Below, piece by piece: positions 5,489-49,865 of a DNA stretch of 64,000 nt. The number at the start of each line of letters is the position of its first letter. Position 1 is the stretch's first letter. A program made the position numbers and the translations under genes. Under the pieces are notes generated by a model. The model saw only the letters and a list, made by a program, of their open reading frames with translations. It was not told the DNA's origin and did no database searches. The DNA comes from a virus: IMG/VR virus record IMGVR_UViG_3300044999_000022, positions 1 to 64,000 of that record; one strand, given 5' to 3'.

Positions 5489-5956
5489 TTAAACGATGCG
5501 GAAGGCCATCGTCGGCACCCACCCCCAGCCCCACTGATACCATCCAACCCGAGTACCTGGCTCCTCGGCCTGGAACGCGATGTGGTACCATCTGGTGTCG
5601 AAGGTAACATGGCCCGAGCCGAAGAACAGGACGTCGCCTCGGCGGGCATCTTCTAGCGAGATGCGCTCGAAGTGTCCCTCTCCCATTGTGGCGAGCATCT
5701 CGTATGTGTCCCGACCGATCCAGATTCCCGTCGCCTTCTTGACGGCGGTAGACACGAGACCTGAACAGTCGTATGTATACGGGCCCGTAGCCCCGTACTG
5801 ATACCAGTCGCCGGTAGCGTTAGCCTCGGCCCAGCTGAGCGCCGCTCCTCCGTAGTTCGGAGCGGTGCTTGCCTGTGCCGTGACTTGAGGGCCGACGGTC
5901 AGCCCTGCTAGGGTGAGGCAGCCGGCCATGACGAGGTGGCGCCAGTCAGCACCCAT
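5489..5956 (-). CDS. Secreted NlpC/P60 peptidoglycan endopeptidase
   Basis: Signal peptide ending AQA; YQYGATGPYTYDCSGLV, GDVLFF and GHV catalytic motifs. Confidence 0.9.
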   Translation of the reverse strand: MGADWRHLVMAGCLTLAGLTVGPQVTAQASTAPNYGGAALSWAEANATGDWYQYGATGPYTYDCSGLVSTAVKKATGIWIGRDTYEMLATMGEGHFERISLEDARRGDVLFFGSGHVTFDTRWYHIAFQAEEPGTRVGWYQWGWGWVPTMAFRIV

Positions 5957-6752
5957 CGTACGGCCTCCAGTTGTCCTCGCCTCCGCGGGCCATTGCGTTG
6001 CCGAACACTCGGTTCTGTTCGGCGACCGATGCGTGTCCGAAGTCGGCCGGTGAACCACCGTAGGCGGCCCAGGTGGACGCGCTGAACTGGTACAGGCCGT
6101 AGTGGCCAGTCGAGTTCATCACCTGTGACTGGCCGCCGGATTCCCGGGCGATCACGCATGCCTGGAAGCTGCCGTCGCCGGCAGTCGAGACGGCCTGGTT
6201 GTAGGGCGACGATGTCGCGCTGTAACCCGGCGGGTTCTGGACCGCGCTCTGATAGGCAGCCAGCGTCTGCCTCGCGCGGTTAACGGCATTGACGGCCGCT
6301 CCATACGCGGGGTGGCTGGCGAGGGTGGCCTTGAGTTCCTGGCCCGGCTCGATCAGGTTGGGGTTCTGGCCGATGACCCGCTCGTTGGAGGCATACAACC
6401 AGGGCCACTTGTCCGGGTTGCCGAACAGCTTTTGGGAGATGCCTGACAGGGTATCGCCGGCCTTGACGACGTAGTCCGTGATGGCCGCTGGAGCGTACTT
6501 GCGGAGCGGTGTGGTGTAGAAGTGTGGGTGGAACAGTTGCGTATTTGAGCTGGCGCTGTCATTGGAGACGAGCGCTACGTGAGAGCTGGGAGTTGTTACT
6601 GCTGATTGCGATGCGACTACCAATGCGGTTACAGCGAGTGCACCCCCCGCGGTTGCCGCCGCCCTGACTACAGGGTGAGGCGTGGCGGGGGCTACGTGGC
6701 GTCCAGGCTTAACTATGCCTGCGTGTCGGCCACGTCGTGTCTTGCTATGCAT
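5946..6752 (-). CDS. Secreted LysM + Rpf-like lytic transglycosylase
   Basis: GRH-containing signal peptide; LysM (YVVKAGDTLSGI..NPNLIEPGQEL); C-terminal CVIARESGG..HYGLYQFSASTW..ASVAEQ..W..C. Confidence 0.88.
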   Translation of the reverse strand: MHSKTRRGRHAGIVKPGRHVAPATPHPVVRAAATAGGALAVTALVVASQSAVTTPSSHVALVSNDSASSNTQLFHPHFYTTPLRKYAPAAITDYVVKAGDTLSGISQKLFGNPDKWPWLYASNERVIGQNPNLIEPGQELKATLASHPAYGAAVNAVNRARQTLAAYQSAVQNPPGYSATSSPYNQAVSTAGDGSFQACVIARESGGQSQVMNSTGHYGLYQFSASTWAAYGGSPADFGHASVAEQNRVFGNAMARGGEDNWRPYDGC

Positions 6753-6806
6753 CTAGTCGAACCTTTCATGCGGGGATATGTTCACTGAAGAACTGATGAG
6801 AACAAT

Positions 6807-7025
6807 TCAGGGTAATGATGATCCACCTCCTTTCGAGGTCAGGAAGGACACGGTCCCCCGCTCAGGGTCACTGTGAATGGTAATGAGCAGCCCTAGCTTT
6901 TCCGCCTGATAGCGTAGCCGATGCGTAAGGCTGTTCATATCTTCGGGCTTAACCTCCCTTGCGGTCTGCCAATGTGCAGTGGCCGCCGAGAACTTCAACG
7001 GTTCGGTGAAATCTTCAACAGCCAC
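6807..7025 (-). CDS. Small hypothetical, probable DNA-binding protein
   Basis: First gene after promoter; similar to 9165..9377 and 11575..11901. Confidence 0.6.
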   Translation of the reverse strand: MAVEDFTEPLKFSAATAHWQTAREVKPEDMNSLTHRLRYQAEKLGLLITIHSDPERGTVSFLTSKGGGSSLP

Positions 7026-7055
7026 TAGACCTCCGGGTCTTTTTTGTATACATTT

Positions 7056-7085
7056 ATTATATCATAAACCACCTTTCGTGGTCCA
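7056..7085 (-). promoter_or_regulatory. Promoter TGGACC-N18-TATAAT with extended -10 TG
   Basis: TGaTATAAT in an AT-rich island upstream of the 6807..7025 gene. Confidence 0.7.
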
Positions 7086-7117
7086 GCGGGCCTCTGTGGA
7101 AATTTTTAGCTCGCGGG

Positions 7118-7267
7118 CTAGGGCTGTTCTAGATCACGGCCGTCTGGTTCCAGCGGTATATTCGGGTTTGGATCACACTTTAGGCAGACGACTTTGATGT
7201 TCGGGTCGTCTGACCGGGCGGCTAGCTCGACTCCGCATAGATAGCAGAAGCGCTTGTACCAGGACAT
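7118..7267 (-). CDS. Small Zn-ribbon protein (MSWYKRFCYLCG...VCLKCDP, 49 aa)
   Basis: Two CxxC pairs; starts 3 nt after the PolB-like stop; below ORF-track cutoff. Confidence 0.6.
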   Translation of the reverse strand: MSWYKRFCYLCGVELAARSDDPNIKVVCLKCDPNPNIPLEPDGRDLEQP

Positions 7268-7270
7268 ATG

Positions 7271-8674
7271 CTAATCCGACCAGCATAGTTCTTGATCTTC
7301 GGAACGGCGCTCGAGGTGATAGCCATCGCGGCAATAGATACATCGGTGGCGGCCTTCCTCGAATTGGAGCTTCCATGTTTTGGTATAGGCCTCCAGCCAG
7401 TTTGGGGCTACCGGATTAGCCCAGTTAACCTGGGTGCGCTTGGCCCGAACCCTGAGGGGGTCGTTTCGTACGGCGTCCCAGTCGATATCGGTGTAGCCGT
7501 TCGTACGACTCTTGAGGTTCGTCTTGAATACGCTCGTCTGGACGATGAGCAGGTAGTCGTGAACGGTCATCTTCCAGCTGCCTAGGATGCCGGAGAGGTC
7601 CAGGACGTCTGATATGTCGACGTTTGTATAGAACCCGTCTATGTACCAGCGAAAGACGATGCCGTAGCGCTCTACGGCTTTACGCATTGCGTCGAGGAGT
7701 TTTCGGCGCGTGACCGCTCTGCAGTACTTGCCTAGGCCTTCGTTGTGCCATTTCTCCGCGCTACGGTTATAGTCGCGGCGCTCGTAGCGAGAGACTTGAG
7801 CGAGCATCTTGCCGGGTAGGACCGTTTGGGTCACCTTGATGAGGTGAGCCGACGGGGTACCCGCCAAGTCGTGCCGGTATTGGTCAAGTCTACGAACGTA
7901 TTCCTTCAGGCCTTCATGCTGTACTTCATCGCCGAGCAGCGCTGATGCAAAGGCGCTAACTAGGTCGTACTCGTAGATCGGTCCTGGAATGTAGCCGCAG
8001 GCCACGGAACCCATGCATTGCGTAGGGCTAGCAGGTAGGTGGGGTGTAGGGACGTCAGGGATGCCGGTGATCTTCATGTCGTGGAGGAGCTGGTTAGCGA
8101 GGGACGAGTTCCGGAACCAGTTGTTCTGGAACGCGCGGAGACCGACAGATGCGAGGTCGGTACGTGCACGGTTCATGATCTCGACCAGGTCGGTCGTTCC
8201 GTACTGCGCGTAGGTGCGCTCAGCTGCCTGCATAAAGAACGGCCGGACATCGAAGATACGGTTGCTGTTGTAGCGTAGTTCACCTCCCGAGATGTAATGA
8301 TCGCTCTGCTTGGCGGGGTAGAGCCGTACCTTGCCCCAGGGGACGTGAAGCGGAACGCCGGCCGCGAAGAGCGCACGATCGCTCTCGTACGGGAGGTCGT
8401 TCGCTATCCCGTGGGCGACGGTATGCAGACCTCCGTAGGTAACCTGCCATGCGTTGGTGTCGTCAAAGTTCTCCAGCAATGGGATGAAGTCGCGCTGCCG
8501 GTGCTGGGACGCCTGCCAGTTGTCCCTGAGTTCTTGCTCGCGTGTGCGACCGCGGCGACGTTCTACAGCGCGTTGATTGTTCTGGAGGCGCTGTTCTTCT
8601 GGATCGGCGGTCGCTCTAGACGGTCTTGGTATCCATTCACTCGCCCGTTGCATCGAATCGTCCTCGTCGCTCAT
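7271..8674 (-). CDS. Degenerate family-B DNA polymerase-like protein
   Basis: Ordered PolB-like motifs: A (IYEYDLVSAFASAL), B (IKVTQTVLPGKM), YCRAVTRRKL, C (RWYIDGFY), LGSWK, KSRTNG; no clear Exo I motif; C-terminal CxxC. Confidence 0.72.
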   Translation of the reverse strand: MSDEDDSMQRASEWIPRPSRATADPEEQRLQNNQRAVERRRGRTREQELRDNWQASQHRQRDFIPLLENFDDTNAWQVTYGGLHTVAHGIANDLPYESDRALFAAGVPLHVPWGKVRLYPAKQSDHYISGGELRYNSNRIFDVRPFFMQAAERTYAQYGTTDLVEIMNRARTDLASVGLRAFQNNWFRNSSLANQLLHDMKITGIPDVPTPHLPASPTQCMGSVACGYIPGPIYEYDLVSAFASALLGDEVQHEGLKEYVRRLDQYRHDLAGTPSAHLIKVTQTVLPGKMLAQVSRYERRDYNRSAEKWHNEGLGKYCRAVTRRKLLDAMRKAVERYGIVFRWYIDGFYTNVDISDVLDLSGILGSWKMTVHDYLLIVQTSVFKTNLKSRTNGYTDIDWDAVRNDPLRVRAKRTQVNWANPVAPNWLEAYTKTWKLQFEEGRHRCIYCRDGYHLERRSEDQELCWSD

Positions 8675-8718
8675 GAGGAGTATGACCGCCCTTGAATAGC
8701 TTGTACATGACGCGCATG

Positions 8719-9165
8719 TCAGGTCTCCTCATATGCGAAGTCCTCCGGGCGTTCTCGTTCGCGCGCTAGAGCGTGCCAGCGACGCTGAGCCTCCTCCCTC
8801 CTGACCCCTTGGGTGTCCCGTCGGTAATAAGCGTCCCAGAGAGCGGAGCGAGCCGCTGAAAAGTTCTCATACAACCGAAGACTCGGATCGGCGTTAGCCG
8901 CGCGCTCGAACTCGAGTTCGAAGTAGGGATCGTTATAGGCCTCTACGCTGCGCGCGCGCACGCGTTCCCGAACGATCGTACGCGATCGCCTGCGCACTTC
9001 GTCTCCGACGGGGCTGCCCGCGAGCCCCTCGTTCATAAGCTTTCGGAGTTCCTGTTGGGAGCGGTTGACGGTATGCCCGCGCTCGTCCGCCCGCCCGCCG
9101 TGGAGGCCTGCGTAGCGCCTGAGCAGGTATGCCCATTCGGCATCCGTTATGGGCTGATATGCCAC
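8719..9165 (-). CDS. Hypothetical Arg/Glu-rich helical protein
   Basis: TAGTG coupling to upstream gene; immediately precedes the PolB-like gene. Confidence 0.65.
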   Translation of the reverse strand: MAYQPITDAEWAYLLRRYAGLHGGRADERGHTVNRSQQELRKLMNEGLAGSPVGDEVRRRSRTIVRERVRARSVEAYNDPYFELEFERAANADPSLRLYENFSAARSALWDAYYRRDTQGVRREEAQRRWHALARERERPEDFAYEET

Positions 9166-9377
9166 TAGTGGTCGTCCTTCCTGAACTGGAACTGTATAAT
9201 GTCGCCTCTGATGTGGACCGAGACCTTCATGCCGAGACGTCGGGCTCGTTGATAGACGTAGCAGCGAAAGCTGTGCGGGTCTCCGAAGAAGTCCTTACCG
9301 CGTTCTGCGTTCCAAACATCGCCGTCCGTAAGAGTCGACCAGTCATAAATCGGCGGTCTTCCTTGCTTCCGCCTCAT
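9165..9377 (-). CDS. Small DNA-binding protein (GRPP-Y-W type)
   Basis: RRKQGRPPIYDW basic hook; paralogous to 11575..11901. Confidence 0.65.
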   Translation of the reverse strand: MRRKQGRPPIYDWSTLTDGDVWNAERGKDFFGDPHSFRCYVYQRARRLGMKVSVHIRGDIIQFQFRKDDH

Positions 9378-9716
9378 TCACGCCAGATCTATGAGCGCTA
9401 CTTGGAGTCCGCGGGAGCCGCTGAGCCAGAAACGGCTGACATAGTGGAGCTCGATCGTCTCGGCCATCACGAACGGCCCGAACGTCATGACTGTCTTGGG
9501 GGGCATGAGTGAGGTCATGGTAGTACGATCGCCCGTCAGGAGATGGATGTCGAAGCGAATTGTGCGATGGCCTCTCTTTAGAGTGTTCTTGACGTATACG
9601 ATAGTGCTCAGCCTGGGGTCCCAGACTTCGTCGCCTTCTCTAGAAGCGGGCTTCATGATGTCGTTGATGTCGGTGGCGCTGTTGGGAGGTGGACTGTATG
9701 CCCTGAGGACTGTCAT
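9378..9716 (-). CDS. Hypothetical protein (MTVLRAYSPPP...)
   Basis: AAAGGA RBS before ATG 9716. Confidence 0.6.
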   Translation of the reverse strand: MTVLRAYSPPPNSATDINDIMKPASREGDEVWDPRLSTIVYVKNTLKRGHRTIRFDIHLLTGDRTTMTSLMPPKTVMTFGPFVMAETIELHYVSRFWLSGSRGLQVALIDLA

Positions 9717-9811
9717 GGCCGTCCTTTCATATATCCATGGCAGAGAATGGCTCCGCAACCTAGGCCGCCGATGAATGAAATGCAGCACGCGAGCCAGATG
9801 CCGAAGTCCAT
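9713..9811 (-). CDS. Small membrane peptide (MDFGIWLACCISFIGGLGCGAILCHGYMKGRP)
   Basis: Fills gap; ATGA overlap with next gene; single hydrophobic helix. Confidence 0.5.
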   Translation of the reverse strand: MDFGIWLACCISFIGGLGCGAILCHGYMKGRP

Positions 9812-9813
9812 GT

Positions 9814-10746
9814 TTATGCTGCCGGCCTTTCGATGAATGGTGTCATCGCTATCCGATGTGTTTTGGCATTGTAATAGACTCGTTTTTCAGTGAAGTCGGA
9901 CTCTAGCCGTCCGGTGGCGCTGAAGTAGCGGGCGTCTGGGTCGATGTCTCCGCGCTCTTCGTCGGATGCATCCTCGAGCTTATGTCGACCGAGGCGGTAC
10001 GACCAAAGAACGTCAGGCGCATCTCCAAAGACACTACTTCCCCGGGCTCGCCACTGGCTGCCATGACCTGTATGGTGGACAAGCAGAGTTTCGCTGAGAT
10101 GTGCCTCGTCTGATAGGGCGTTGACGGCTTCAACAATTGCTCCTCCTCCGTCGCTGGAGTTCCGGTTTTCGTCGAGTCCGAATGATCGAAGCAGGGGGCC
10201 GAGCGGATCGAGGACGAGGATGGCGGCGTTGAGGTCACCAAGTTGAGCCGCGATGCGGGACCGGATCGCATCGTTGACAATATTGAACTGACGAGCTCGT
10301 CCACGAAGGTTGTGGATGTAGACATTCGGGAACCCTCCGAAAGGGCGTGCGTAGTATTGTTGGGTACGCTCATCTACCTCGAAGTTGCAGTGGACAATGG
10401 TTTGGTCACTGTCTATCGGAGTGACATGCGCGCTTAGGAATGGCTCGCCCGTCTTTAGGCAGCGAATGATGTTCTGGACAAGAGTACTCTTGCCAGTCTT
10501 ACGGTAGGCCGCCAGGAGCGCAGTTCCTCCCGTAGGCCAGAGGCTATCGATGCGGTACTGGGGAGTTGTGTACTCGACGGCGAGGAATTGCTCGTATGAC
10601 ATCGGCGGGCCCAGACAGAAGTCCTCGTCGGCGGTCATCTCTGCCAGGCGTTCATTGCCGCGGCGTTGCCCTAGGGAGCGCTCGAGGTATTGCTGGGCGT
10701 GTTGGGATATGCGCCGCTGGTCGACTTGCAGTGGATTGTCACTCAT
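9814..10746 (-). CDS. RepA/RecA-like AAA ATPase (SF4-type helicase, AAA_25)
   Basis: Walker A AYRKTGKST, NFE, Walker B LVLDPL, LVHHTG, RGSS motifs. Confidence 0.85.
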   Translation of the reverse strand: MSDNPLQVDQRRISQHAQQYLERSLGQRRGNERLAEMTADEDFCLGPPMSYEQFLAVEYTTPQYRIDSLWPTGGTALLAAYRKTGKSTLVQNIIRCLKTGEPFLSAHVTPIDSDQTIVHCNFEVDERTQQYYARPFGGFPNVYIHNLRGRARQFNIVNDAIRSRIAAQLGDLNAAILVLDPLGPLLRSFGLDENRNSSDGGGAIVEAVNALSDEAHLSETLLVHHTGHGSQWRARGSSVFGDAPDVLWSYRLGRHKLEDASDEERGDIDPDARYFSATGRLESDFTEKRVYYNAKTHRIAMTPFIERPAA

Positions 10747-11098
10747 AGTTCTTTGCTCCGCAGCGCGGCCACATGCATTTGCCTGAAACCGAGAATACGT
10801 GATCGTGACTCAAGGGCTGATAGGCAGCGTCCGTATAGCGTGTTGATGGGGGCTGCTTAGCCTTCCACTCGGCGGATTCCTTCTCGAATAGGGCTTCTTT
10901 GACGTATCGCTCGGCTTCGCCGCACTGGTCGAAGCCGGCCAGCTGCGCGATATTCGCTACCGGCAATGCGTCCTCGTAGGACCAGAACCCGGATCCCCAG
11001 TCCATCGAGCCGATGACCAGGTCGTAGAGCGCTTGGACGCCTTCGGTGACGTCCTCCTGCGTACCGTCATCCGCATGGAATACGAACTTGCCCCTCAT
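10739..11098 (-). CDS. Hypothetical protein
   Basis: ATGA coupling; C-terminal H..C..C cluster. Confidence 0.6.
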   Translation of the reverse strand: MRGKFVFHADDGTQEDVTEGVQALYDLVIGSMDWGSGFWSYEDALPVANIAQLAGFDQCGEAERYVKEALFEKESAEWKAKQPPSTRYTDAAYQPLSHDHVFSVSGKCMWPRCGAKNYE

Positions 11099-11429
11099 TT
11101 GAGCGAGTCCAGCGAGTGTAGGATCGCGGTTGTAGCGTCTTCTCGGGCTTGAGTGGAAACTTGCTCTTCTGCGTCTGCAAGCGATCTGGTAAGGGTATTG
11201 AAGACCATTGCGCGACGAAGCTGCTTTGGGTCATTGATCTTCATGGGATGGTCCGCCTTGTGGTGGAGGCGTAGCCAAGCAGCTCGGCGCTCTACGGTTA
11301 GCGCGTCGTTGATTGTTAGGTCGGTCTCGGGGAACTTGTGAACGTAATCACATCTGCCGATCGGACACTTGACGGTCACGAACCCTCGAGGCTGCGCGAA
11401 ATGTTCCCTCTTTGGCAGATAACCTGACA
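11095..11429 (-). CDS. Hypothetical protein with C2H2-like Zn finger
   Basis: GGAGG RBS; CPIGRC...HHKADH. Confidence 0.55.
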
Positions 11430-11578
11430 TGGCGGTGCCTCCAGTGGCGGCGGTAGCGCTTGGCCCGACGAGTCTTGAACTTGCAGTCCGTCTCGAGGCA
11501 GTATAGGTAGGTACCTCCACGTTTGGCGTGCGTCAGGATGAACTCGTTGACGGAGGCTTGGGCATAGTCAGGCTTCAT
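11348..11578 (-). CDS. Small C2H2 zinc-finger protein
   Basis: YCLETDCKFKTRRAKRYRRHWRHRH fits C-x4-C-x12-H-x4-H. Confidence 0.6.
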   Translation of the reverse strand: MKPDYAQASVNEFILTHAKRGGTYLYCLETDCKFKTRRAKRYRRHWRHRHVRLSAKEGTFRAASRVRDRQVSDRQM

Positions 11579-11901
11579 GATGTCTCCACTCCCGTTCCAT
11601 TACACTCGTTACAGTCGTCGACTCTTGGAGCCGTCTCGTCGTATTCCTTCTTACCCGTGCCATCACATCCGGGGCAGGGGGGCTCGTAGAACCGGAACTC
11701 TACGATCCCTTTCTCGGGTGACCCGGTCTCGACGCAGAGTCCTTGGTGGCGTGCTCGCTGATGTAGGGCGGTCTGGAAGCTAGCGACGCTAACTGTAAAG
11801 TCGCTGCCTTGAACCGCACGCCAAACGGCGCCGTCGGTCCATTTCTCCCAGTTGTAGAACTTGCGTCGTCTAGGTCTGGCAGCTTCGAGGCGTTCAGCCA
11901 T
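11575..11901 (-). CDS. Small DNA-binding protein with C-terminal DnaJ-type Zn finger
   Basis: Paralog of 9165..9377; CPGCDGTG and CNECNGTG repeats. Confidence 0.7.
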   Translation of the reverse strand: MAERLEAARPRRRKFYNWEKWTDGAVWRAVQGSDFTVSVASFQTALHQRARHQGLCVETGSPEKGIVEFRFYEPPCPGCDGTGKKEYDETAPRVDDCNECNGTGVETS

Positions 11902-12479
11902 AAGATCTCCATAAGGACGAAAATGAGCATGACGGCGATAACGGCGATTATGGATGCGACTGCGATCGCGGCTGGCGTGTCTAGTTGGAACCGTCGGTGC
12001 TTAACCGGCTTGGGAAGCTCGGGCTGTACGGCTTGCAACTGCGCGCAGTAGTCGCAGAGGTGACTTGTTGGATCGGCTGGCGGTACCGCTAGCCCGCAGT
12101 TCTTGCAGACGTCGGCGTCGAGCTCTCGCTGGAGGCCAGCTGGGGTCGGTTCTGGCAGACTTGAGAGCGTACCGGTTCCTGTCAGGGCGGCTTGCTCGCC
12201 CGCATAGTTGTACGGCTTGCTGCCCACCCGGCCTATCACAGTCTGCCCGCCGGGTAGCTGTATGAGTATACAGCCGCACGGGTTCATGACGTAGCCGCCA
12301 TTCCGGTTGGGATGCCCGCCGGTTACTAGTTGTCCACAGTTAGTACAGCGGGGTTCGCAGCCGGGACTGAAGGAGACGACTGTACTCTCGCCGCTCCCGC
12401 CTCCCCCGCCGCCGTATGCGTGTGAAGGAACTGCGCCATGTGAGGTGGGTACCGTCCATTGAGCGTGTGCGTGGTTCAT
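11700..12479 (-). CDS. Hypothetical protein with Zn-ribbons and a TM helix
   Basis: CTNCG/PCGC and CKNCG/CDYC pairs; hydrophobic segment; ATGA coupling. Confidence 0.55.
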   Translation of the reverse strand: MNHAHAQWTVPTSHGAVPSHAYGGGGGGSGESTVVSFSPGCEPRCTNCGQLVTGGHPNRNGGYVMNPCGCILIQLPGGQTVIGRVGSKPYNYAGEQAALTGTGTLSSLPEPTPAGLQRELDADVCKNCGLAVPPADPTSHLCDYCAQLQAVQPELPKPVKHRRFQLDTPAAIAVASIIAVIAVMLIFVLMEILWLNASKLPDLDDASSTTGRNGPTAPFGVRFKAATLQLASLASRPPYISEHATKDSASRPGHPRKGS

Positions 12480-12673
12480 AACTCGACTTCATGGTCTGCT
12501 GGAGTTGAGTCGGTCCAGTTGAGGTGCTGGATGGTAGCCGACTTCATCTCCATCTTGTCCGTAAAGACTGCGGCGGTCCAGCGTTGCATGTCATGTTCGG
12601 CCGCCTCGGCGTCGACATATATGTACTCGATGAGACGTAGTACTCGTACGGTCATTCGGACCTCCTTCAACAC
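12476..12673 (-). CDS. Hypothetical protein
   Basis: First gene after leftward promoter; AAGGAGG RBS favours the internal Met. Confidence 0.6.
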   Translation of the reverse strand: MLKEVRMTVRVLRLIEYIYVDAEAAEHDMQRWTAAVFTDKMEMKSATIQHLNWTDSTPADHEVEL

Positions 12674-12688
12674 TTTTCTGTATACTTA

Positions 12689-12718
12689 ATTATATCATGG
12701 GACATAGTGTGCCTTCAA
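12689..12718 (-). promoter_or_regulatory. Leftward promoter TTGAAG-N18-TATAAT (extended -10)
   Basis: Near-consensus hexamers in the divergent intergenic region. Confidence 0.75.
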
Positions 12719-12750
12719 GCTATCCCAAGAAAGTTTATAGTATTTTCTAG

Positions 12751-12779
12751 GGACTTCGATCGTTCTCCTATGGTATACT
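12751..12779 (+). promoter_or_regulatory. Rightward (virion operon) promoter with extended -10 TGgTATACT
   Basis: -10 TATACT 25 nt upstream of the terL start; weak -35. Confidence 0.6.
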
Positions 12780-12803
12780 TAAGCTATACCGGGAGGTTCA
12801 TTA

Positions 12804-14489
12804 GTGGAACGAGCGGGCTATTTCTTCGAAGACGACCCGCGCTTTGGCAAGGAAGAAGCCGATGAGCCCCTGGAGTATCCCGACGTCCTGCTCGGGCTGA
12901 TTGCCAAGCCGTCAGGACCGCGCTGGTTCCGACAGTTGCTGTCTCAGCTTGATCGTGCGGCGCTTGCGTCCGACGATCCTCATGATCGACTTGTACTGAC
13001 CAAGAATGACCCACTACTGTTCGCGCTGGTCTACTTGATCCACCACTTGTACTCACCAGAGACGAAAAACCGGATCTCGTTTGCGGAGTTTCACCTTGAC
13101 ATCATCGAATGTGCCAAGCAGTGGACCCAGCGACCGCGAGAGCCACGAGATGCTCGTGACTCATATGTCGCTCCTCGAGGCGTTGGAAAATCAACGTGGC
13201 TATTCACTATACTTCCTATCTGGGCCGCAGCTCACGGACACGTCAAATTCATCGCAGCGTTCTCGGACAGTGGTGATCAGTCCAAAAACCACTTGGCAAC
13301 GATTCGAACTGAGTTTGATACGAACGATCTGCTCGCGCAAGATTTTCCCGAGCTTTGTACGGCAAAGATCCGCCGACCGGGCGGGCCGATGGGCAAGAAA
13401 CTTGTTAGTCAGCGAGTCGACAAGATCGAGCAGGCCAATGGGTTCGTCATGCTTGCAAAGGGCTCTGGAGCAGCCGCTCGCGGAATGAAGGTCGGCAAGA
13501 TGCGCCCCGACCTTATCATCCTCGACGACATCGAGCCCGGCGAGGAGAAGTATTCCGGCGCGGTCATGGAGTTCCGGCTTAGGTGGATGCTAGAGACAGT
13601 GTTCCACCTAAACGAGTACGCTCGGGTCATTATCGTAGGAACCGTGACCGCGCCGGGGTCCATCATGCACCAGTTGGTCGAATCCGTACTGCACCCGATG
13701 GAGGACACGCCGGGCTGGATCGCCTCCCAGAGGATTCACGTCCACTACTACGCGCCGATCCTGATCAACGACGACGGTACTGAGCGTTCATGCTGGCCGG
13801 GTAAGTGGTCGATTGCGTACTTGAAGTCCATCGAGCACACGAAAGAGTACAAGAAGGAGTTCGAGAACCAGCCGATCTCGCTCCGTGGTAATTACTGGAC
13901 GATGGACGACTTCGTCTACATGGACCTCCCGACCGTGTTCGACGCACTTTGTCTGGACCCGGCAGTGACCTCGCACCGGGGTTCTCACGATACCGGTCTG
14001 GCGATCCTTGGGCTTCATCCTGGATCTGAGCAGCACGGGAGGTGTGTAGTTGTCAAGTACGCAACTCGGCTGCACCTGCCCCCGGCCGAGCTACGTCGGT
14101 CAGTACTGTGGTACCTAGAGCAGTGGCCCGAAGTCGGCGTCGTGTTTATCGAGACCAACCAGGGACGCGACCTGTGGATCGAAGTCATGCACGACCTTCC
14201 GGTGAGGGTCATCCAGACCTGGAGTTCGCCTCCGAAGCCGGTACGCCTATCGCGCTTGCTGAATTCGTACCAGCGCGGCTGGGTCGTGCATCAGAAGCCG
14301 TTGCCCCGTCTCGAACAAGAACAATGCGCGTACGAAGGCGTGGGTCCGCAGTCAGAAGAGCCGGACATCATTGACGGCGTCGAGATTGGGGCACGGCAGT
14401 TCATCAAGGGCCCGCTGCCGCGGCCTACTGGCGGTACGTTCAGTTACGCGCGTCGAAGCCCGCTTCCGCATGAGGAGGCGTTCGATTGA
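12804..14489 (+). CDS. terL: Terminase large subunit
   Basis: Walker A APRGVGKST, Walker B LIILDD, IIVGT, nuclease LCLDPA, IETNQG, PDIIDG. Confidence 0.93.
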   Translation: MERAGYFFEDDPRFGKEEADEPLEYPDVLLGLIAKPSGPRWFRQLLSQLDRAALASDDPHDRLVLTKNDPLLFALVYLIHHLYSPETKNRISFAEFHLDIIECAKQWTQRPREPRDARDSYVAPRGVGKSTWLFTILPIWAAAHGHVKFIAAFSDSGDQSKNHLATIRTEFDTNDLLAQDFPELCTAKIRRPGGPMGKKLVSQRVDKIEQANGFVMLAKGSGAAARGMKVGKMRPDLIILDDIEPGEEKYSGAVMEFRLRWMLETVFHLNEYARVIIVGTVTAPGSIMHQLVESVLHPMEDTPGWIASQRIHVHYYAPILINDDGTERSCWPGKWSIAYLKSIEHTKEYKKEFENQPISLRGNYWTMDDFVYMDLPTVFDALCLDPAVTSHRGSHDTGLAILGLHPGSEQHGRCVVVKYATRLHLPPAELRRSVLWYLEQWPEVGVVFIETNQGRDLWIEVMHDLPVRVIQTWSSPPKPVRLSRLLNSYQRGWVVHQKPLPRLEQEQCAYEGVGPQSEEPDIIDGVEIGARQFIKGPLPRPTGGTFSYARRSPLPHEEAFD

Positions 14490-45864: not shown

Positions 45865-46464
45865 TCAGTAGTGGAGGTGCTTCGGAGCGCAGCCTCTGCG
45901 GACAACGCGGACGGGGATCTTGGCCTCCCTAGCTTCCTGCCACGTGTACTCGTCTACGTGCGGGAATACCCAAGTGGCCATGTCGCTCCGGATACAGGCC
46001 TCGATGAGACGCCGTGGCAGGTACGTAAAGTTGAACGTGAACATCGTAGGGTCGTCGATGTCGCTCTGCCATATCTTACGCGCTTCCTCATTGGACAGCG
46101 GCGGGTCCCGATCGGTAAGGACCTCTCGATGCCCCCAAACCCAGTAGTGATAAGCCGTGCTCGCCGGCCACAGGCGAACTGGCGCCGTCCAGACCACGTC
46201 TGGCTCTGTAGTCGCACTGATGATCATGGCGGAGTAGTCGAGCGGGTCGATAGCGCAGTCCGCATCGAGGATAAGCATCCCACTGCTCTGGACCCGGGCT
46301 GATACTTGCCAGATACGGGTCAGTAGCAATCCCTTCTGGCCGAAGGGGTGCTCTGCCGTAGGCATCACGTCAAAGGCGCGGAAGTTAGACGGTGTTGGCC
46401 CGCACTCCTTTCCCTGCCACCTGATACGCGCGTGTACTACGGACTCCAGTGCTGGCCCGTCCAT
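45865..46464 (-). CDS. Putative GT-A-fold glycosyltransferase-like protein
   Basis: MLILDAD DxD motif; FTFNFTYLPRRLI, HVD..W, V.V...KHLH C-terminal pattern; TAATG-coupled to polA. Confidence 0.6.
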   Translation of the reverse strand: MDGPALESVVHARIRWQGKECGPTPSNFRAFDVMPTAEHPFGQKGLLLTRIWQVSARVQSSGMLILDADCAIDPLDYSAMIISATTEPDVVWTAPVRLWPASTAYHYWVWGHREVLTDRDPPLSNEEARKIWQSDIDDPTMFTFNFTYLPRRLIEACIRSDMATWVFPHVDEYTWQEAREAKIPVRVVRRGCAPKHLHY

Positions 46465-49400
46465 TACGGCCTCCATAGCTCTACAGTTGTCGGATAGGGA
46501 CGCTTGCCGCCTTTCCAATCTTCGTAACTAACTAGGTCGCCCCAGTTCATACCGACGTCGGCGCCTACCTTGATCGGGACGTAGTCGCCCATTACGGAGT
46601 AGGCGGATTCCTGCATGGTTTCGACTACGGTTTTGACCACATAGTCCAGGTTATCACGGTGGAACTCCCAATAGAGAGCATCGTGAATAGTGTTACGGCA
46701 CCAGGCGGTCCCTTTGAGCTTGGGTCGTAGCCAGTTGAAGGCTTGGACACAAATGTCGCTGGCAATTGACTGTGGGTAGAAGGCGCAAGCCTCATTCTGG
46801 ATGTCCTTCCGGTTCTGGTCCGTGATCAGGTAGAACCGACGTCGTCGCCCGAACGGAGTGACGAGGTCTCTTCCAGATAGCGCCTGTATCTTTGCCTCCT
46901 CGCGAAATCGGACAATCCTTGGAATGACCTTGAAGAACGCCTGCAGGCCTCGCTGAGCCTCTGCAACAGGTAGGCCAAATTCATCAGCGATTGACTGAGC
47001 CTCTCGGCCGTAAGCGAGACCGTAGACATAACACTTGACGATATTTCGTCGGTCCTTCTTGGACATGATTCCGCGGTGGGATCGTTCGGGCTGGATGACT
47101 GGTTCGAGTTCATCAAATAGGTCCCTACTCGGGTCGGAGAAGATCTCTTGGAAGTATGGTTCTTGCGCGAGCCAGGTTAGTACCCGGAGCTCGATTTGTC
47201 CATAGTCGAACTCTCCCAAGAGGTGGTCAGGGTTAGCGACCTTATACTGGCGTCGTAGTTTATCGCCACGCGGAATGACCTGAAGCGACGGCCGTTTCTG
47301 AGAAGTTCGACCTGTAGTAGTGCTGTGGAGTTGGATGGTCGTATACACACGGCCATGGTCGAGGAATTTGTGCAGGCCAGATACGTACGTACCATCTAGC
47401 TTTGCTACCTTCCGGTGCAGGAGCATCGTCTCGAGGAACGTAACCGAGGGCCGCGCGGAGTGCGGGTCTACCTCGACCACTTCGGCACCTAGTTGGTTAG
47501 TACCGCCCTCATTGGACACGTAGCCTGCGAGACGTCTAGGGTCGATGGGCCGCCTCTTCTCGCGCTCGAGCATGATCTGCAAGGCTTCGGCGTCGGTAGT
47601 CTCGGCCATCTCACCCTTAGTGTTCCGCTTGCGTGGGATCTGGACGCCTAGCTGTCGGAGTGCGTCCTTGACCTGCATAGGCGATCGCGGATTGATTGCG
47701 CCAACCGTCCGATCCATGATGGCCTCGAGGCGGTCGAGCTCTGCTCGATACTCGCGCTGGAGTTCACGGTTGTACTTGAGGTCGACCGCGAACCCATTGT
47801 ATTCCGTGAACATGAAGTTTTCCGCTGCAGCGCATAGGAAGTCATGGAGCTGCTCCAGCCCCCACTTCTGACCGTCAGCGCGAGGCAGTACGGGTTCGAT
47901 ATAATTATCGTTCCGGATAAGCTGCATGTTGTACTCGTCCAAGGCAAACGTGGCTGCGACATCCCATGCGTTGTACTTGTACAGGATCGGCTTTGGGATC
48001 GTTCCGTACCGACGTTGCTTGCCTCGTCCGAGGTATTGCTCAATCTCCTCATCCCATCTCGGACAGCCTAGCTTCTCGACGCCCTGGTGCTTCAGTCCGT
48101 GTATCCCCGGACGTTCGTCTTGTACGTAGGACTGGTACATTGTATCATGCCAGACATGTAGGCCGCGGATGCCTTTAGCATAGAGTCCTGCGGTATCGAA
48201 CTTGCCGTTTTGAAATATGAGCTCCATTCCGTCTCCGGATAGATACTCTGCCAGAGCCCCACGGACAGACTTATAGCGGCAGGCTTTCTGCCCAAACACG
48301 ATAGCATGGCGGCGTGACCAAGCCATTCCAATACATAGAATCTTATACTTATTGGGGTGATCAAACGTCGAGTTGTGTGTGAGGAGTCCATTAGCGATCA
48401 GCGTTCCTGTCGAGGTCTTGAGGGAAACGACTTCTCGTTCTCCTACTGGAGTGATCGATAGTATACGTGCTTTGTCATAGTTGAGGCGCTTATGCCAAAC
48501 CCGTTCGGCCTGACGCAATAGCCTCTCGGGGCGGAAAGTGCCTAGAGTGCGAAGGATGTCCCACCGCGCCCCGATTGACCAGGACTCATGAGGATTGCCG
48601 CTAAGTCTGTTAAGACCTCGATAATGGTTGCCTAGATCATGCGCCTTCAATATCTGGGCGACCTTATCCGCGACCGGACCGACGTTCTGTGAGAACTCCA
48701 GCATCGGATGATTGCTGGCAGGGTTCGATAGGCAGCCCTCGCTGTCTAGAAAGCCCGCCATATAGCCGCCGTCGCGAGTTTCGTTAACCTCCCAAGGCTC
48801 CGACGTAAAAGGTATGAAGTATTCAGGTCGAGGTAGTGCTTGCTGGCCCCAGCAGCGACTGTTCGGATTTGCAAAGCGGGCTGCGAGGTCTTCTGTAGTG
48901 CCCCAGCGCCACTTTGTATCAACGCCCCGCGGACCGCGCGTCTTATAAGGCCAACGATGCAGCCCGCTGCAGACAACGCTCCCACGGTCGGTCTGCACGC
49001 GGTAGCATTGACGCGTAATGCGTCCGACGGACTCGACGATCGCGGGGCTCATCGTAGTGATCGGATCCGCACTAAACCCGACTAGCTCATCCCCTACCTC
49101 GAGGCCGCCGGCATCGGTCCAGGTTAGGTCCCGCCTGAGCACTTTCGTCTCTGGAACGAGGCATTCCTTGTCCAGGTCGGTCTCGATGTCGACCGTTAGT
49201 CTCTTGAAGTGCTTCTTCATGTAGGCTATCGCGGTCAGGGCAGCCTTCTCGGTATTCCAGACCGTATAGTACGGCGCTTCCCACTTGGGAGGCTTAGTAA
49301 CGAGTTTGCCGATGTCGGTCGCCATAGACGGGAACGACGACGCCGAGCGCAGGCAAGCGGCAGGATGGAACGTCGGGATGATCCGTACCCCAGGCAGCTC

Positions 49401-49865
49401 GAACTCGTTCTCACGATACGGACCGACGCGGAGGTTGGAAATTACGACCTTCGTCCGCAGGATGCTCTGAGCCGGCACGTTGCCCAAGGCTACGATATCC
49501 CTAACGCCTCGGTCCTTGAGTTCGGCCATTAGTCGCGGCCTGCACGCTGCGACTGCGGCAGCTGGTGGCTTGATATTCTCCCTCTTGTGGACGCATAGGC
49601 AGGCGTTTGTGATAAACGCCTTACTACGATCGATGTGGTAGTACTGCAGTACCTTGTCCAGCAACCTACCAGATGCGCCGATAAACGGCTTGCCCAGCCG
49701 GATCTCGTTCTGACCCGGGTTCTGGCCCACAAAGGCAATGTCAGCCTTTACCGGACCGTATGAAGGGACGAAACCGTAATCGGGTCCATTAAGCGGGCAG
49801 CGCTCACAGACCGCTAGGGGATGCCGGCGCTGAATCCCGGCATCCCCTTCGATAACTTCAGTCAT
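46464..49865 (-). CDS. polA: DNA polymerase I (family A) with N-terminal family-4 uracil-DNA glycosylase domain and an intein
   Basis: UDG: CERCPL, FVGQNPG, TFHPAA; Exo: VDIET, QNGKFD, YNAWD; Pol: TTTGRTS, DYGQIELR, KCYVYGLAYG, TIHD. Confidence 0.93.
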   Translation of the reverse strand: MTEVIEGDAGIQRRHPLAVCERCPLNGPDYGFVPSYGPVKADIAFVGQNPGQNEIRLGKPFIGASGRLLDKVLQYYHIDRSKAFITNACLCVHKRENIKPPAAAVAACRPRLMAELKDRGVRDIVALGNVPAQSILRTKVVISNLRVGPYRENEFELPGVRIIPTFHPAACLRSASSFPSMATDIGKLVTKPPKWEAPYYTVWNTEKAALTAIAYMKKHFKRLTVDIETDLDKECLVPETKVLRRDLTWTDAGGLEVGDELVGFSADPITTMSPAIVESVGRITRQCYRVQTDRGSVVCSGLHRWPYKTRGPRGVDTKWRWGTTEDLAARFANPNSRCWGQQALPRPEYFIPFTSEPWEVNETRDGGYMAGFLDSEGCLSNPASNHPMLEFSQNVGPVADKVAQILKAHDLGNHYRGLNRLSGNPHESWSIGARWDILRTLGTFRPERLLRQAERVWHKRLNYDKARILSITPVGEREVVSLKTSTGTLIANGLLTHNSTFDHPNKYKILCIGMAWSRRHAIVFGQKACRYKSVRGALAEYLSGDGMELIFQNGKFDTAGLYAKGIRGLHVWHDTMYQSYVQDERPGIHGLKHQGVEKLGCPRWDEEIEQYLGRGKQRRYGTIPKPILYKYNAWDVAATFALDEYNMQLIRNDNYIEPVLPRADGQKWGLEQLHDFLCAAAENFMFTEYNGFAVDLKYNRELQREYRAELDRLEAIMDRTVGAINPRSPMQVKDALRQLGVQIPRKRNTKGEMAETTDAEALQIMLEREKRRPIDPRRLAGYVSNEGGTNQLGAEVVEVDPHSARPSVTFLETMLLHRKVAKLDGTYVSGLHKFLDHGRVYTTIQLHSTTTGRTSQKRPSLQVIPRGDKLRRQYKVANPDHLLGEFDYGQIELRVLTWLAQEPYFQEIFSDPSRDLFDELEPVIQPERSHRGIMSKKDRRNIVKCYVYGLAYGREAQSIADEFGLPVAEAQRGLQAFFKVIPRIVRFREEAKIQALSGRDLVTPFGRRRRFYLITDQNRKDIQNEACAFYPQSIASDICVQAFNWLRPKLKGTAWCRNTIHDALYWEFHRDNLDYVVKTVVETMQESAYSVMGDYVPIKVGADVGMNWGDLVSYEDWKGGKRPYPTTVELWRP
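48372..49163 (-). mobile_element. Intein with LAGLIDADG homing endonuclease (264 aa) in the polA exonuclease domain
   Basis: Begins CLVPETKV, block B CSGLHRW, YMAGFLDSEGC, ends LLTHN followed by Ser +1. Confidence 0.9.

Follow-up and report, generated by a model that had tools for sequence, protein, structure and literature searches.

The polymerase cassette

The DNA considered here, called the window throughout, is a stretch of 64,000 nucleotides (nt) that forms the first 64 kb of the IMG/VR virus record IMGVR_UViG_3300044999_000022 (G000; 86,834 bp, classed as linear and estimated to be 95% complete), and the subject of this report is a small gene cassette, within this stretch of a soil phage, that is built around an unusual family-B DNA polymerase (PolB) of 467 amino acids (aa), referred to below as mini-PolB. 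A reading of the window from its letters alone had drawn attention to four adjacent open reading frames (ORFs) of 49, 467, 148 and 70 aa, the 148-aa product ending in DFAYEET, and all four exist as described, all on the minus strand. Mini-PolB is encoded at 7271..8674 (-) and is composed of a remnant exonuclease-like N-domain that lacks the motifs ExoI to ExoIII, a palm, a short two-helix fingers region, a thumb and a C-terminal H-C-C-H element. Directly upstream, separated from it in the window by 44 nt, is the gene for the 148-aa protein, hereafter p148 (8719..9165, minus strand), which is preceded in turn by the gene for the 70-aa protein (9165..9377, minus strand), whose stop overlaps the p148 start by 1 nt. 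Farther upstream lies the gene for a 310-aa P-loop ATPase of the RepA/DnaB type (9814..10746, minus strand; Pfam AAA_25, E 3.7e-18). The cassette is a single operon-like minus-strand run that points away from the genes for TerL and the portal.

A reduced family-B DNA polymerase

The identity of the 467-aa protein as a real, strongly reduced family-B DNA polymerase is confirmed, as is the proposal of the sequence-only reading that it derives from a PolB and has a rewired active site. No match was returned by Pfam, PHROG, NCBIfam or PADLOC scans, so that PF03175, the Pfam family 'DNA polymerase type B, organellar and viral', was not matched directly, nor by tblastn against 50,697 phage records; the mini-PolB profile (alignment A1) found nothing better among PDB sequences than a chance match at E 0.38, and two peptide patterns, run against genome contigs with one genome for each species, picked out 35 stretches, none of them a relative. 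The connection is provided by comparison of profiles: in hhalign the profile of 25 homologues matches the 704-aa metagenomic protein P0035 at 97.8% and E 1e-12, in an alignment that spans 241 columns and keeps motifs A, B and C in register, and P0035 itself matches PF03175 at E 3e-16 (a second full-length protein, P0038, of 638 aa, reaches 18.5 bits, below the cut-off).

Structure prediction leads to the same family, as the sequence-only reading had suggested should be checked. The AlphaFold2 model, built on the 25-homologue alignment, has a pLDDT of 67 and a pTM of 0.63, and Foldseek found 17 PDB matches to it at E<=0.001, and among the matches listed each is a family-B polymerase or an entry for a replisome. 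In the VIA-align comparison Z>=8 was reached by 160 of 998 chains, the highest at Z 11.9; the superposition covered 204 aa at 3.0 A for Pol alpha (Z 11.8) and 330 aa at 4.9 A for phi29 polymerase (Z 10.1). In the phi29 superposition (model residues 59-437 against chain residues 6-575) the N-domain lies on the exonuclease domain despite the loss of its motifs. A structure search of the ESM Atlas, which used its own model of the protein, ranked a PF03175 viral cluster first, with a TM score of 0.67.

Motifs retained and lost

The reduced enzymes, or minis, were aligned by MAFFT with full-length relatives and with the polymerases of phi29, PRD1, Bam35 and Toil, and spacings were compared between 8 minis and 11 full-length relatives and outgroups. 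The altered motifs A, B and C noted earlier, together with LGSWK, KSRTNG and a C-terminal CxxC, are present and align with true PolB motifs in both hhalign and MAFFT, and the residues to which most of the argument below attaches are D237, K280, G288, R323, D346, W367, R390 and G393. Motif A, YxYDxxSAYP in the full-length enzymes and outgroups, is YEYDLVSAFAS in mini-PolB, with the Pro replaced, and its Asp, D237, falls in the same alignment column as that of phi29, PRD1, Bam35 and Toil. Motif B, KLxxNSxYGK in the full-length enzymes, is KVTQTVLPGK here; its N, S and Y are replaced in the minis (by Q/T/S, V and P), and K280 and G288 are invariant. In place of the full-length ITSxCR the minis have RAVTR, in which R323 aligns with the Arg of the Tx2GR motif. 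Motif C is YCDTDS in phi29, PRD1 and Bam35 and ETDG in enzymes of the Toil type; here it is RWYIDG, followed by F, and in most homologues RWNTDG, the second Asp (D346) being invariant and the position of the first being taken by Y, N, C or H. That first Asp is also missing, according to the published accounts, from active primer-independent PolBs, or piPolBs (PMC5695915), and from other active enzymes (PMC11071308).

Beyond motif C, the GxW motif is kept in full-length enzymes and minis alike (19 of 19 rows; LGSWK here, with W367). At the KxY position phi29, PRD1 and Bam35 have KxY, most Toil-type enzymes have lost the Lys (P0038 keeps KIY), and the minis have lost it too, reading [SN]x[FW]. 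Farther downstream the full-length enzymes carry K[TMCSV]RG (KTRG in Toil) and the minis [KR]-x-x-G, which is RTNG within KSRTNG here (R390, G393) and KTNG in P0030. The description of KSRTNG as typical of protein-primed PolBs in general has therefore to be given up, since phi29, PRD1 and Bam35 have KxY and KSRTNG corresponds to the K[TMCSV]RG of actinobacterial tectiviruses. The steric-gate position keeps an aromatic residue in the minis.

The losses are concentrated in two regions. The sequence-only reading had found no clear ExoI, and not only is the ExoI DxE absent from the minis, but another residue stands in place of the ExoII Asp, and the segment with ExoIII is deleted. It had also remarked on a short spacing between motifs A and B, which is 43 aa here and 36-47 aa in the 8 minis against 120-134 aa in the 11 full-length relatives and outgroups, from which it follows that the TPR1 insertion, about 90 aa between motifs A and B, is gone. 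The spacing from motif B to motif C, which covers the TPR2 region, is 53-65 aa in the minis, 55-67 aa in the actinobacterial-tectivirus types and 75-95 aa in phi29, PRD1 and Bam35. At the C terminus the pattern H443-x-C445-x2-C448-x4-H453, a putative zinc-binding element modelled at pLDDT <50 for residues 437-447 and 454-467, has H443, C445 and H453 invariant and C448 at least 90% conserved among the 25 close homologues, and an H..C..C..H element is found in the full-length tectiviral enzymes as well.

Forty-nine columns are invariant among the 25 close homologues, including D237, K280, G288, R323, D346, W367, K388, R390 and G393, and in a 12-sequence alignment that reaches down to 22% identity the positions that stay invariant are the Asp of motif A, the Lys and Gly of motif B, Asp-Gly in motif C, GxW and, in K/R-x-x-G, the Gly. 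The two catalytic Asp residues are thus kept in 25 of 25 close homologues and in 12 of 12 sequences of the wider set, which settles in favour of the earlier proposal the matter of their conservation. Judged by the residues retained, mini-PolB is most likely catalytically competent.

Homologues, selection and origin

Homologues of mini-PolB are rare and come from metagenomes only. A word-indexed search returned 25 proteins at E<=0.001, the query included, and an exhaustive search of 1.84 billion representatives returned 17; the mini form ranges from 421 to 489 aa. For the related loci L004 and L005, the only pair with unsaturated synonymous divergence (dS 0.435; other pairs are saturated), the polymerase has a ratio of nonsynonymous to synonymous substitution (dN/dS) of 0.019 and the gene of the 148-aa protein one of 0.071. 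That mini-PolB is a decaying pseudogene is ruled out by the invariant catalytic residues and by this dN/dS of 0.019, obtained from one pair.

The family of P0035 is far larger, with more than 610 metagenomic PF03175 proteins, and the longest contig among the best 120 of these is 21,318 bp. By tblastn P0035 matches 25 phage records, of which the best are the tectiviruses Rhodococcus phage P19 (E 4e-87) and Toil (E 4e-85), followed by six Microbacterium tectiviruses with the annotation 'DNA primase/polymerase' and by the Streptomyces phages WheeHeim, Forthebois and RickRoss, and the weakest are archaeal viruses; the same search of plasmids gave no match. A quick IQ-TREE tree was made of 47 rows, comprising 19 minis, 3 outgroups (PRD1, Bam35 and phi29) and 25 full-length enzymes (P0035, P0038, the three named tectivirus polymerases of Toil, WheeHeim and DesireeRose, and every sixth protein of P0078-P0196). 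All 19 minis fall on one side of a branch with SH-aLRT support of 100 and a stem length of 1.5, adjoining first the full-length P0038 (SH-aLRT 92) and then 24 Toil-type enzymes. The simplest reading of this topology is that the reduced form had a single origin within or beside the actinobacterial-tectivirus lineage, its exact sister being uncertain owing to the long branches.

Conservation of the cassette

The gene order around mini-PolB is well conserved. In six IMG/VR loci found with the polymerase, judged as far as their flanks reach (L006 and L007 are without some members), the order is a small protein, the AAA_25 ATPase, the paralogue of the 70-aa protein, p148, mini-PolB, a 72-aa protein and lysis-type genes. 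Two further loci of the same phage group, with a TerL that is about 65% identical, encode far more divergent polymerases (27-32% identity), and there, too, a p148 homologue (31-35%) comes immediately before the polymerase. The AAA_25 gene of L013 and L019, which encodes 244-251 aa (Pfam E 1.5e-26 in L013), is found downstream of the polymerase instead, so that the trio survives a change of gene order. A search anchored on TerL gave 16 loci, with mini-PolB in 9 (L025 and all 8 of those whose upstream DNA extends 5.5 kb or more), p148 in 10 and AAA_25 in 9; the remaining loci have at most 4.1 kb upstream and are too short to tell. Many of the TerL-anchored loci are the same contigs as the earlier loci, and the distinct contigs that carry both p148 and mini-PolB number 10, the window included. 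The neighbouring 148-aa gene co-occurs in every locus in which this can be checked, as the sequence-only reading had proposed to verify, and mini-PolB is a constant, core syntenic gene of this group of PolA-encoding tailed phages of about 78-87 kb.

The AAA_25 protein matches the C-terminal helicase portions of two PHROGs, 'DNA polymerase/primase' (positions 500-692 of 872) and 'DNA primase' (360-543 of 747). It is likely to be a replicative helicase, and in its matches it resembles a primase-helicase from which the primase half is missing.

The cassette is headed by a 108-aa protein (11575..11901, minus strand) with a C-terminal CxxC..CxxC finger and an N-terminal domain (PW..WTDG.VW) that it shares with the 70-aa protein, the latter being a paralogue of its N-terminal part. 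The common domain, PW..W(T/S)DG.VW..(E/Q)G.DF, has no family match and is present in two copies in every related locus, one small paralogue always heading the cassette and the other preceding p148. The 70-aa protein, which had been called DNA-binding, has no match in Pfam, PHROG or PADLOC that would give a basis for that name; the small paralogues may nonetheless be origin- or DNA-binding parts of the module.

Other features of the region appear to be peripheral. The 49-aa ORF downstream of mini-PolB (7118..7267, minus strand), which had been described as a Zn-ribbon, contains two CxxC pairs, and its zinc-ribbon Pfam matches (E 0.002-0.03) are weak and below the cut-offs; BLAST showed nothing corresponding to it in the 6 related loci, and it hence probably lies outside the core module. 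A 136-aa ORF between the AAA_25 and 70-aa genes (9378..9788, minus strand) has neither a family match nor relatives in the 6 related loci and is, for these reasons, a doubtful or variable filler. At the corresponding place, between AAA_25 and the 70-aa paralogue, the relatives have one or two small CxxC ORFs with the pattern PVYIRH.VGRC..CG.P.LDAGWTDDP (L003:6724-6930 and 6891-7124; L004:7120-7332; L005:7141-7332; L006:6752-6949), to which the 136-aa ORF is unrelated. A promoter-like site facing the cassette was located in the gap opposite the terminase gene (12689..12718, minus strand; 10 of 12 consensus matches); it is a weak candidate, as the region holds no more of these sites than chance would supply, the counts of the promoter and terminator scan of the region being at chance level generally. 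A search of 6700-13000 for iterons or origin-like repeats yielded nothing beyond short matches in two copies, such as chance would produce.

The upstream partner p148

In all 10 distinct contigs p148 is encoded directly 5' of mini-PolB, and in L004 and L005 the two genes overlap by 1 nt, in L013 by 4 nt, the end of p148 running into the start of the polymerase. A family search for p148 returned 39 proteins, from contigs whose lengths agree with those of the polymerase matches, and homologues within the phage group are 141-148 aa long. Its AlphaFold2 model (pLDDT 83.8, pTM 0.78) is an all-helical globule with a disordered acidic tail of about the last 14 residues. No match was found in Pfam, PHROG, NCBIfam or PADLOC, nor among PDB sequences with profile A3, and the fold is likewise without a close counterpart in the structures compared, the best Foldseek match having E 0.83 and the best of 48,161 chains in VIA-align Z 3.6, with none at Z>=5. 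Terminal-protein chains do not appear among the fold matches listed, which does not exclude such a relationship. One 148-aa homologue, P0070, from a contig of 68,140 bp, is labelled 'non-homologous end joining protein Ku' in one source; the name is supported by no search and was rejected.

None of the candidate priming residues of p148 is universal. At S51, 23 of 24 sequences have Ser and P0074 has Asn; the C-terminal Thr occurs in 24 of 24 sequences of alignment A3 and is replaced by Gly or Arg plus extra residues in the divergent L014 and L019; Y81 and Y114 vary; and no Ser, Thr or Tyr is kept across all homologues. In hhalign comparisons of p148 with the genes that precede the polymerase in Toil, WheeHeim and DesireeRose, probabilities did not exceed 0.4%. 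A predicted complex of mini-PolB with p148 scored 0.00 without controls, a result that counts neither for nor against binding.

Replication genes and genome context

As the earlier account had it, the phage has both PolA and TerL. The main polymerase is a 1133-aa fusion of PolA with an N-terminal uracil-DNA-glycosylase-superfamily domain (UDG-PolA; 46464..49865, minus strand), and the open frames for PolA in relatives encode 860-1153 aa; TerL is encoded at 12804..14489 (phrog_38, E 3.8e-52). Five near-complete genomes of the group (G000-G004, 83-95% complete) were searched with Pfam models: DNA_pol_A was found in 5 of 5, and Prim-Pol, Toprim_2, DNAG_N, DNA_primase_S and DnaB_C in 0 of 5 each. 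In G000 alone, Zn_ribbon_DnaG and Toprim_3 were not matched either.

The phage also encodes an SSB-like protein, an SNF2 helicase, an AAA_24 ATPase, a PD-(D/E)XK nuclease and the deazaguanine-pathway genes FolE, QueD and radical-SAM; in one relative QueC (Pfam E 3.1e-56) lies at L013:13992-14732(+), a few kb downstream of the mini-PolB cassette. In the part of the record beyond the window a ParB-like protein is encoded at G000 67918-68865 (L008:3918-4865, minus strand) and, close to it, a DUF3631 protein at G000 69906-71084 (L008:5906-7084, minus strand). DUF3631 is described as the RepAM replication-initiator family of actinomycete integrative elements (PMC3218068), and the pair suggests plasmid-like maintenance or theta-type initiation in the phage. 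Directly downstream of the cassette, at 5489-6752 (minus strand), are an Rpf-like transglycosylase gene with LysM and an overlapping ORF (5489-6058); homologues of these genes occupy the same place in L003-L006, and that of 5946-6752 also in L002. An actinobacterial host would be in keeping with both the Rpf-like transglycosylase/LysM gene and the RepAM-type gene.

When the first and last 3 kb of G000 were compared, no terminal inverted or direct repeats were found, in a record that at 95% completeness may miss the true ends, and IMG/VR places all five records of the group in its class of linear sequences that lack end repeats. Five independent assemblies of 78-87 kb (the contigs of L004, L005, L006 and L013, and the window at position 1) all end 6.2-7.9 kb downstream of mini-PolB, within about 2 kb of each other and never at the same base. 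This clustering could mark a true genome end region or a stretch that is hard to assemble.

Comparison with known systems

The nearest full-length relatives of mini-PolB, by sequence and by tree, are the PF03175 polymerases of actinobacterial tectiviruses (Toil gp07, WheeHeim gp11 and DesireeRose gp7). Motif A YxYDxxSAY, a single-Asp motif C (xTDG), GxW, K/R-x-x-G and the C-terminal H..C..C..H are common to both, and the actinobacterial host range of the tectiviruses fits the Rpf-like/LysM lysis genes of this phage. The tectivirus enzymes, however, are 596-683 aa long and have the ExoI DxE, ExoII, ExoIII and TPR1 (120-134 aa between motifs A and B) that the minis lack, and they are described as the sole replicases of genomes of 15-18 kb that bear inverted terminal repeats (PMC11768872, PMC6950372), whereas the minis occur in tailed phages of 78-87 kb with PolA.

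A second likeness is to the piPolBs, in which the first Asp of motif C is also replaced (SxTTDG in piPolBs; x[TIV]DG in the minis, where the residue before TDG is not Thr) and Lys/Arg-x-x-Gly (KTRG in piPolBs) stands in place of KxY. As characterised in PMC5695915, piPolBs keep active exonuclease motifs, TPR1, TPR2 and the sequence KH-X8-KTRG, of which mini-PolB has none, and they reside in integrative pipolins and not, as mini-PolB does, in tailed-phage genomes.

Palms derived from protein-primed PolBs (pPolBs) and without an exonuclease are also reported from eukaryotic systems, in the mavirus pPolB and in the Tlr1-like helicase-palm fusions of polinton-like viruses and transpovirons (PMC11071308). 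Like mini-PolB these are associated with or fused to a helicase and lack the first Asp of motif C. As that account presents them, they retain TPR1, TPR2, an N-terminal terminal-protein domain and a vOTU domain, their helicases are of SF1/SF3 and their hosts are eukaryotes; mini-PolB is accompanied by a separate AAA_25 gene, belongs to a bacterial tailed phage and has lost TPR1.

On the side of the ATPase, the parallel is with pairs and fusions of the AAA_25/RepA-type in primase-helicases (phrog_906, phrog_2597), in which the ATPase is likewise coupled to a chain-starting enzyme; RepA of RSF1010 forms with RepB' a primase-helicase pair of the RepA type. The usual partner in such primase-helicases is an AEP or Toprim primase, and here it is a PolB derivative with a 148-aa protein. 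A survey of PolB diversity mentions inactivated and divergent groups (PMC7544198). No published description of a reduced PolB in bacterial tailed phages was found, in a search that stopped short of the supplementary tables of PMC7544198 and PMC5695915.

A possible role in starting DNA chains

One plausible explanation for these observations, and the one put first here, is that mini-PolB is an initiating or priming polymerase that works with a helicase and hands over to PolA, and is not a bulk replicase; it is offered tentatively, as the leading candidate at somewhat less than an even chance. An ancestor of the phage group would have captured a polymerase from the actinobacterial-tectivirus lineage, and the captured enzyme would then have lost its proofreading active site and the TPR1 insertion. 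During replication the DNA would be unwound by the AAA_25 ATPase, mini-PolB, assisted by p148, would initiate short chains on the single-stranded DNA so exposed, most likely de novo, and UDG-PolA would extend those chains. The explanation builds on the homology and fold of the enzyme, its retained catalytic residues, the purifying selection on its gene, its linkage to p148 and the ATPase, and the lack of a recognisable primase. A priming role is supported in particular by the coupling to AAA_25 in 9 loci together with the four primase models found in 0 of 5 genomes, and an enzyme that makes short products fits the loss of proofreading. There is also a precedent, in that a piPolB, with motif C SxTTDG and with KTRG in place of KxY, is reported to synthesise DNA de novo (PMC5695915). 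A stronger version, which is possible but doubtful, holds that a PolB has been whittled into the dedicated primase of the phage and, with p148 and a primase-less RepA-type helicase, makes de novo DNA primers for a PolA replicase.

Several considerations weigh against this explanation. The activity of mini-PolB, its de novo start, its contact with p148 and the helicase and the hand-off to PolA are points that we infer, and for the activity and the kind of primer the inference is a pure one. The likeness to piPolBs is confined to motifs, and the full-length tectiviral relatives share TDG and KxRG and yet are thought to be protein-primed, with genomes that have inverted terminal repeats (PMC11768872, PMC6950372), so that these motifs do not predict de novo priming. 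The Lys of KH in the KH-X8-KTRG of piPolBs is reported to be needed for priming (PMC5695915), and mini-PolB has no KH counterpart at that spacing, ten residues upstream. Moreover, the motif B residues N, S and Y, which normally shape the nucleotide pocket, are gone from the minis, and the AlphaFold2 model of mini-PolB is of moderate confidence. The absence of a primase is that of matches to 4-6 Pfam models in records 83-95% complete, and a hidden primase is possible, as three large ORFs of G000 (451, 485 and 364 aa) are without annotation; many phages, besides, borrow the primase of the host. Finally, the gene context of the deepest mini-PolB branches (P0026, P0028 and P0030-P0036) is missing from the picture, the single-protein IMG/VR scans having come back empty; searches with alignment A8 in viral contigs and with A8 and A9 in metagenome contigs gave no loci for these branches, and alignment A6 recovered L013 and L014.

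Alternative explanations

The main rival, weaker than de novo priming and on balance unlikely, is protein priming on p148, which would then be a terminal or primer protein to which mini-PolB attaches the first deoxynucleotide (dNMP), making protein-linked DNA, for example in patching or capping linear ends in the manner of Streptomyces telomeres. Mini-PolB does descend from a protein-primed lineage, and the place of p148 in the 10 contigs is that of the terminal-protein gene in PRD1, Bam35 and phi29, immediately upstream of the polymerase gene, with the 1-4 nt overlaps of the two genes in relatives, the disordered acidic tail and the Thr that is the last residue in 24 of 24 sequences of A3 all in keeping with such a function. 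A RepAM-like initiator and ParB, both encoded by the phage, are found in actinobacterial plasmid-like elements too, and end patching primed by a terminal protein is known from Streptomyces (PMC3273824). The part of the earlier proposal that saw in the 148-aa neighbour a possible primer protein thus stands as regards its terminal-protein-like position, and is weakened in other respects. TPR1, which is deleted here, is reported to be needed for terminal-protein binding in phi29-type enzymes (PMC5695915); no hydroxyl residue of p148 is universal, S51, the terminal Thr, Y81 and Y114 all being variable; p148 has no profile similarity to the upstream genes of Toil, WheeHeim and DesireeRose; terminal inverted repeats are missing, G000 showing no terminal repeats and five records being classed as linear without end repeats; and the phage has TerL and a portal. 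The analogy that had been drawn with Streptomyces Tap, as a PolB-like enzyme that nucleotidylates the terminal protein Tpg, finds no support in PMC3273824, which, where it takes up the reaction, calls the responsible polymerase unknown and implicates DinB1/DinB2.

It is similarly improbable that mini-PolB is an error-tolerant polymerase of repair, gap-filling or recombination-dependent synthesis, which, with the ATPase and on a damaged or 7-deazaguanine-modified template, would extend 3' ends and start no chains. The loss of proofreading and the loosening of the nucleotide pocket, in which the N, S and Y of motif B are replaced, would suit an enzyme of this kind, piPolB is reported to carry out translesion synthesis as well (PMC5695915), and the phage has both deazaguanine genes (FolE, QueD, radical-SAM) and recombination genes (AAA_24, PD-(D/E)XK nuclease, SNF2). 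The cassette, however, adjoins the terminase and stands apart from the recombination and modification genes, gaps are already filled by PolA-type enzymes, and the constant pairing with a primase-less RepA/DnaB-type ATPase is left unexplained.

The overall interpretation offered by the sequence-only reading is only partly supported, and its proposal of a non-replicative nucleotidyltransferase, making template-independent or decoy DNA for end protection or anti-defence, is the part that fits the data least and is now very unlikely. A second polymerase where PolA could in principle suffice, and one with a rewired active site, does speak for such a proposal, but mini-PolB is a core syntenic gene under strong purifying selection, not part of a variable island and present in 8 of 8 TerL-anchored loci with sufficient upstream DNA; it is linked, in an operon-like run, to a helicase-type ATPase in phages with no recognisable primase, PADLOC matches 0 of 10 cassette proteins, and the residues that bind primer and template DNA (the Tx2GR Arg and K/R-x-x-G) are kept. 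That mini-PolB has lost its catalysis and persists as a structural or scaffolding part of the replisome, much as the C-terminal half of Pol epsilon does, is at least as improbable in spite of the heavy domain loss, the missing motif B pocket residues and the essential structural roles described for inactivated PolB modules (PMC7544198), because both metal-binding Asp residues, the motif B Lys and the Tx2GR Arg are invariant or nearly so at 22-30% identity, and such residues would not be expected to persist in a dead enzyme.

Implications

PolBs are usually thought of as large replicases with proofreading, and to our knowledge the only primer-independent members, the piPolBs, are full-size. The fold and chemistry of mini-PolB are those of PolB and are known; its architecture, its partners and its probable role are rated here as new. 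If mini-PolB primes, it would show a replicase turning into a primase and would define a minimal PolB able to start chains. As a dedicated primase, if that stronger version is true, it would represent a third evolutionary route to a primase beside Toprim/DnaG and AEP, and a minimal primer-independent DNA polymerase of about 420 aa with a possible use in DNA amplification. If instead it is protein-primed, protein priming would work without TPR1 and inside a terminase-packaged phage. Either outcome would change what counts as essential in the PolB family.

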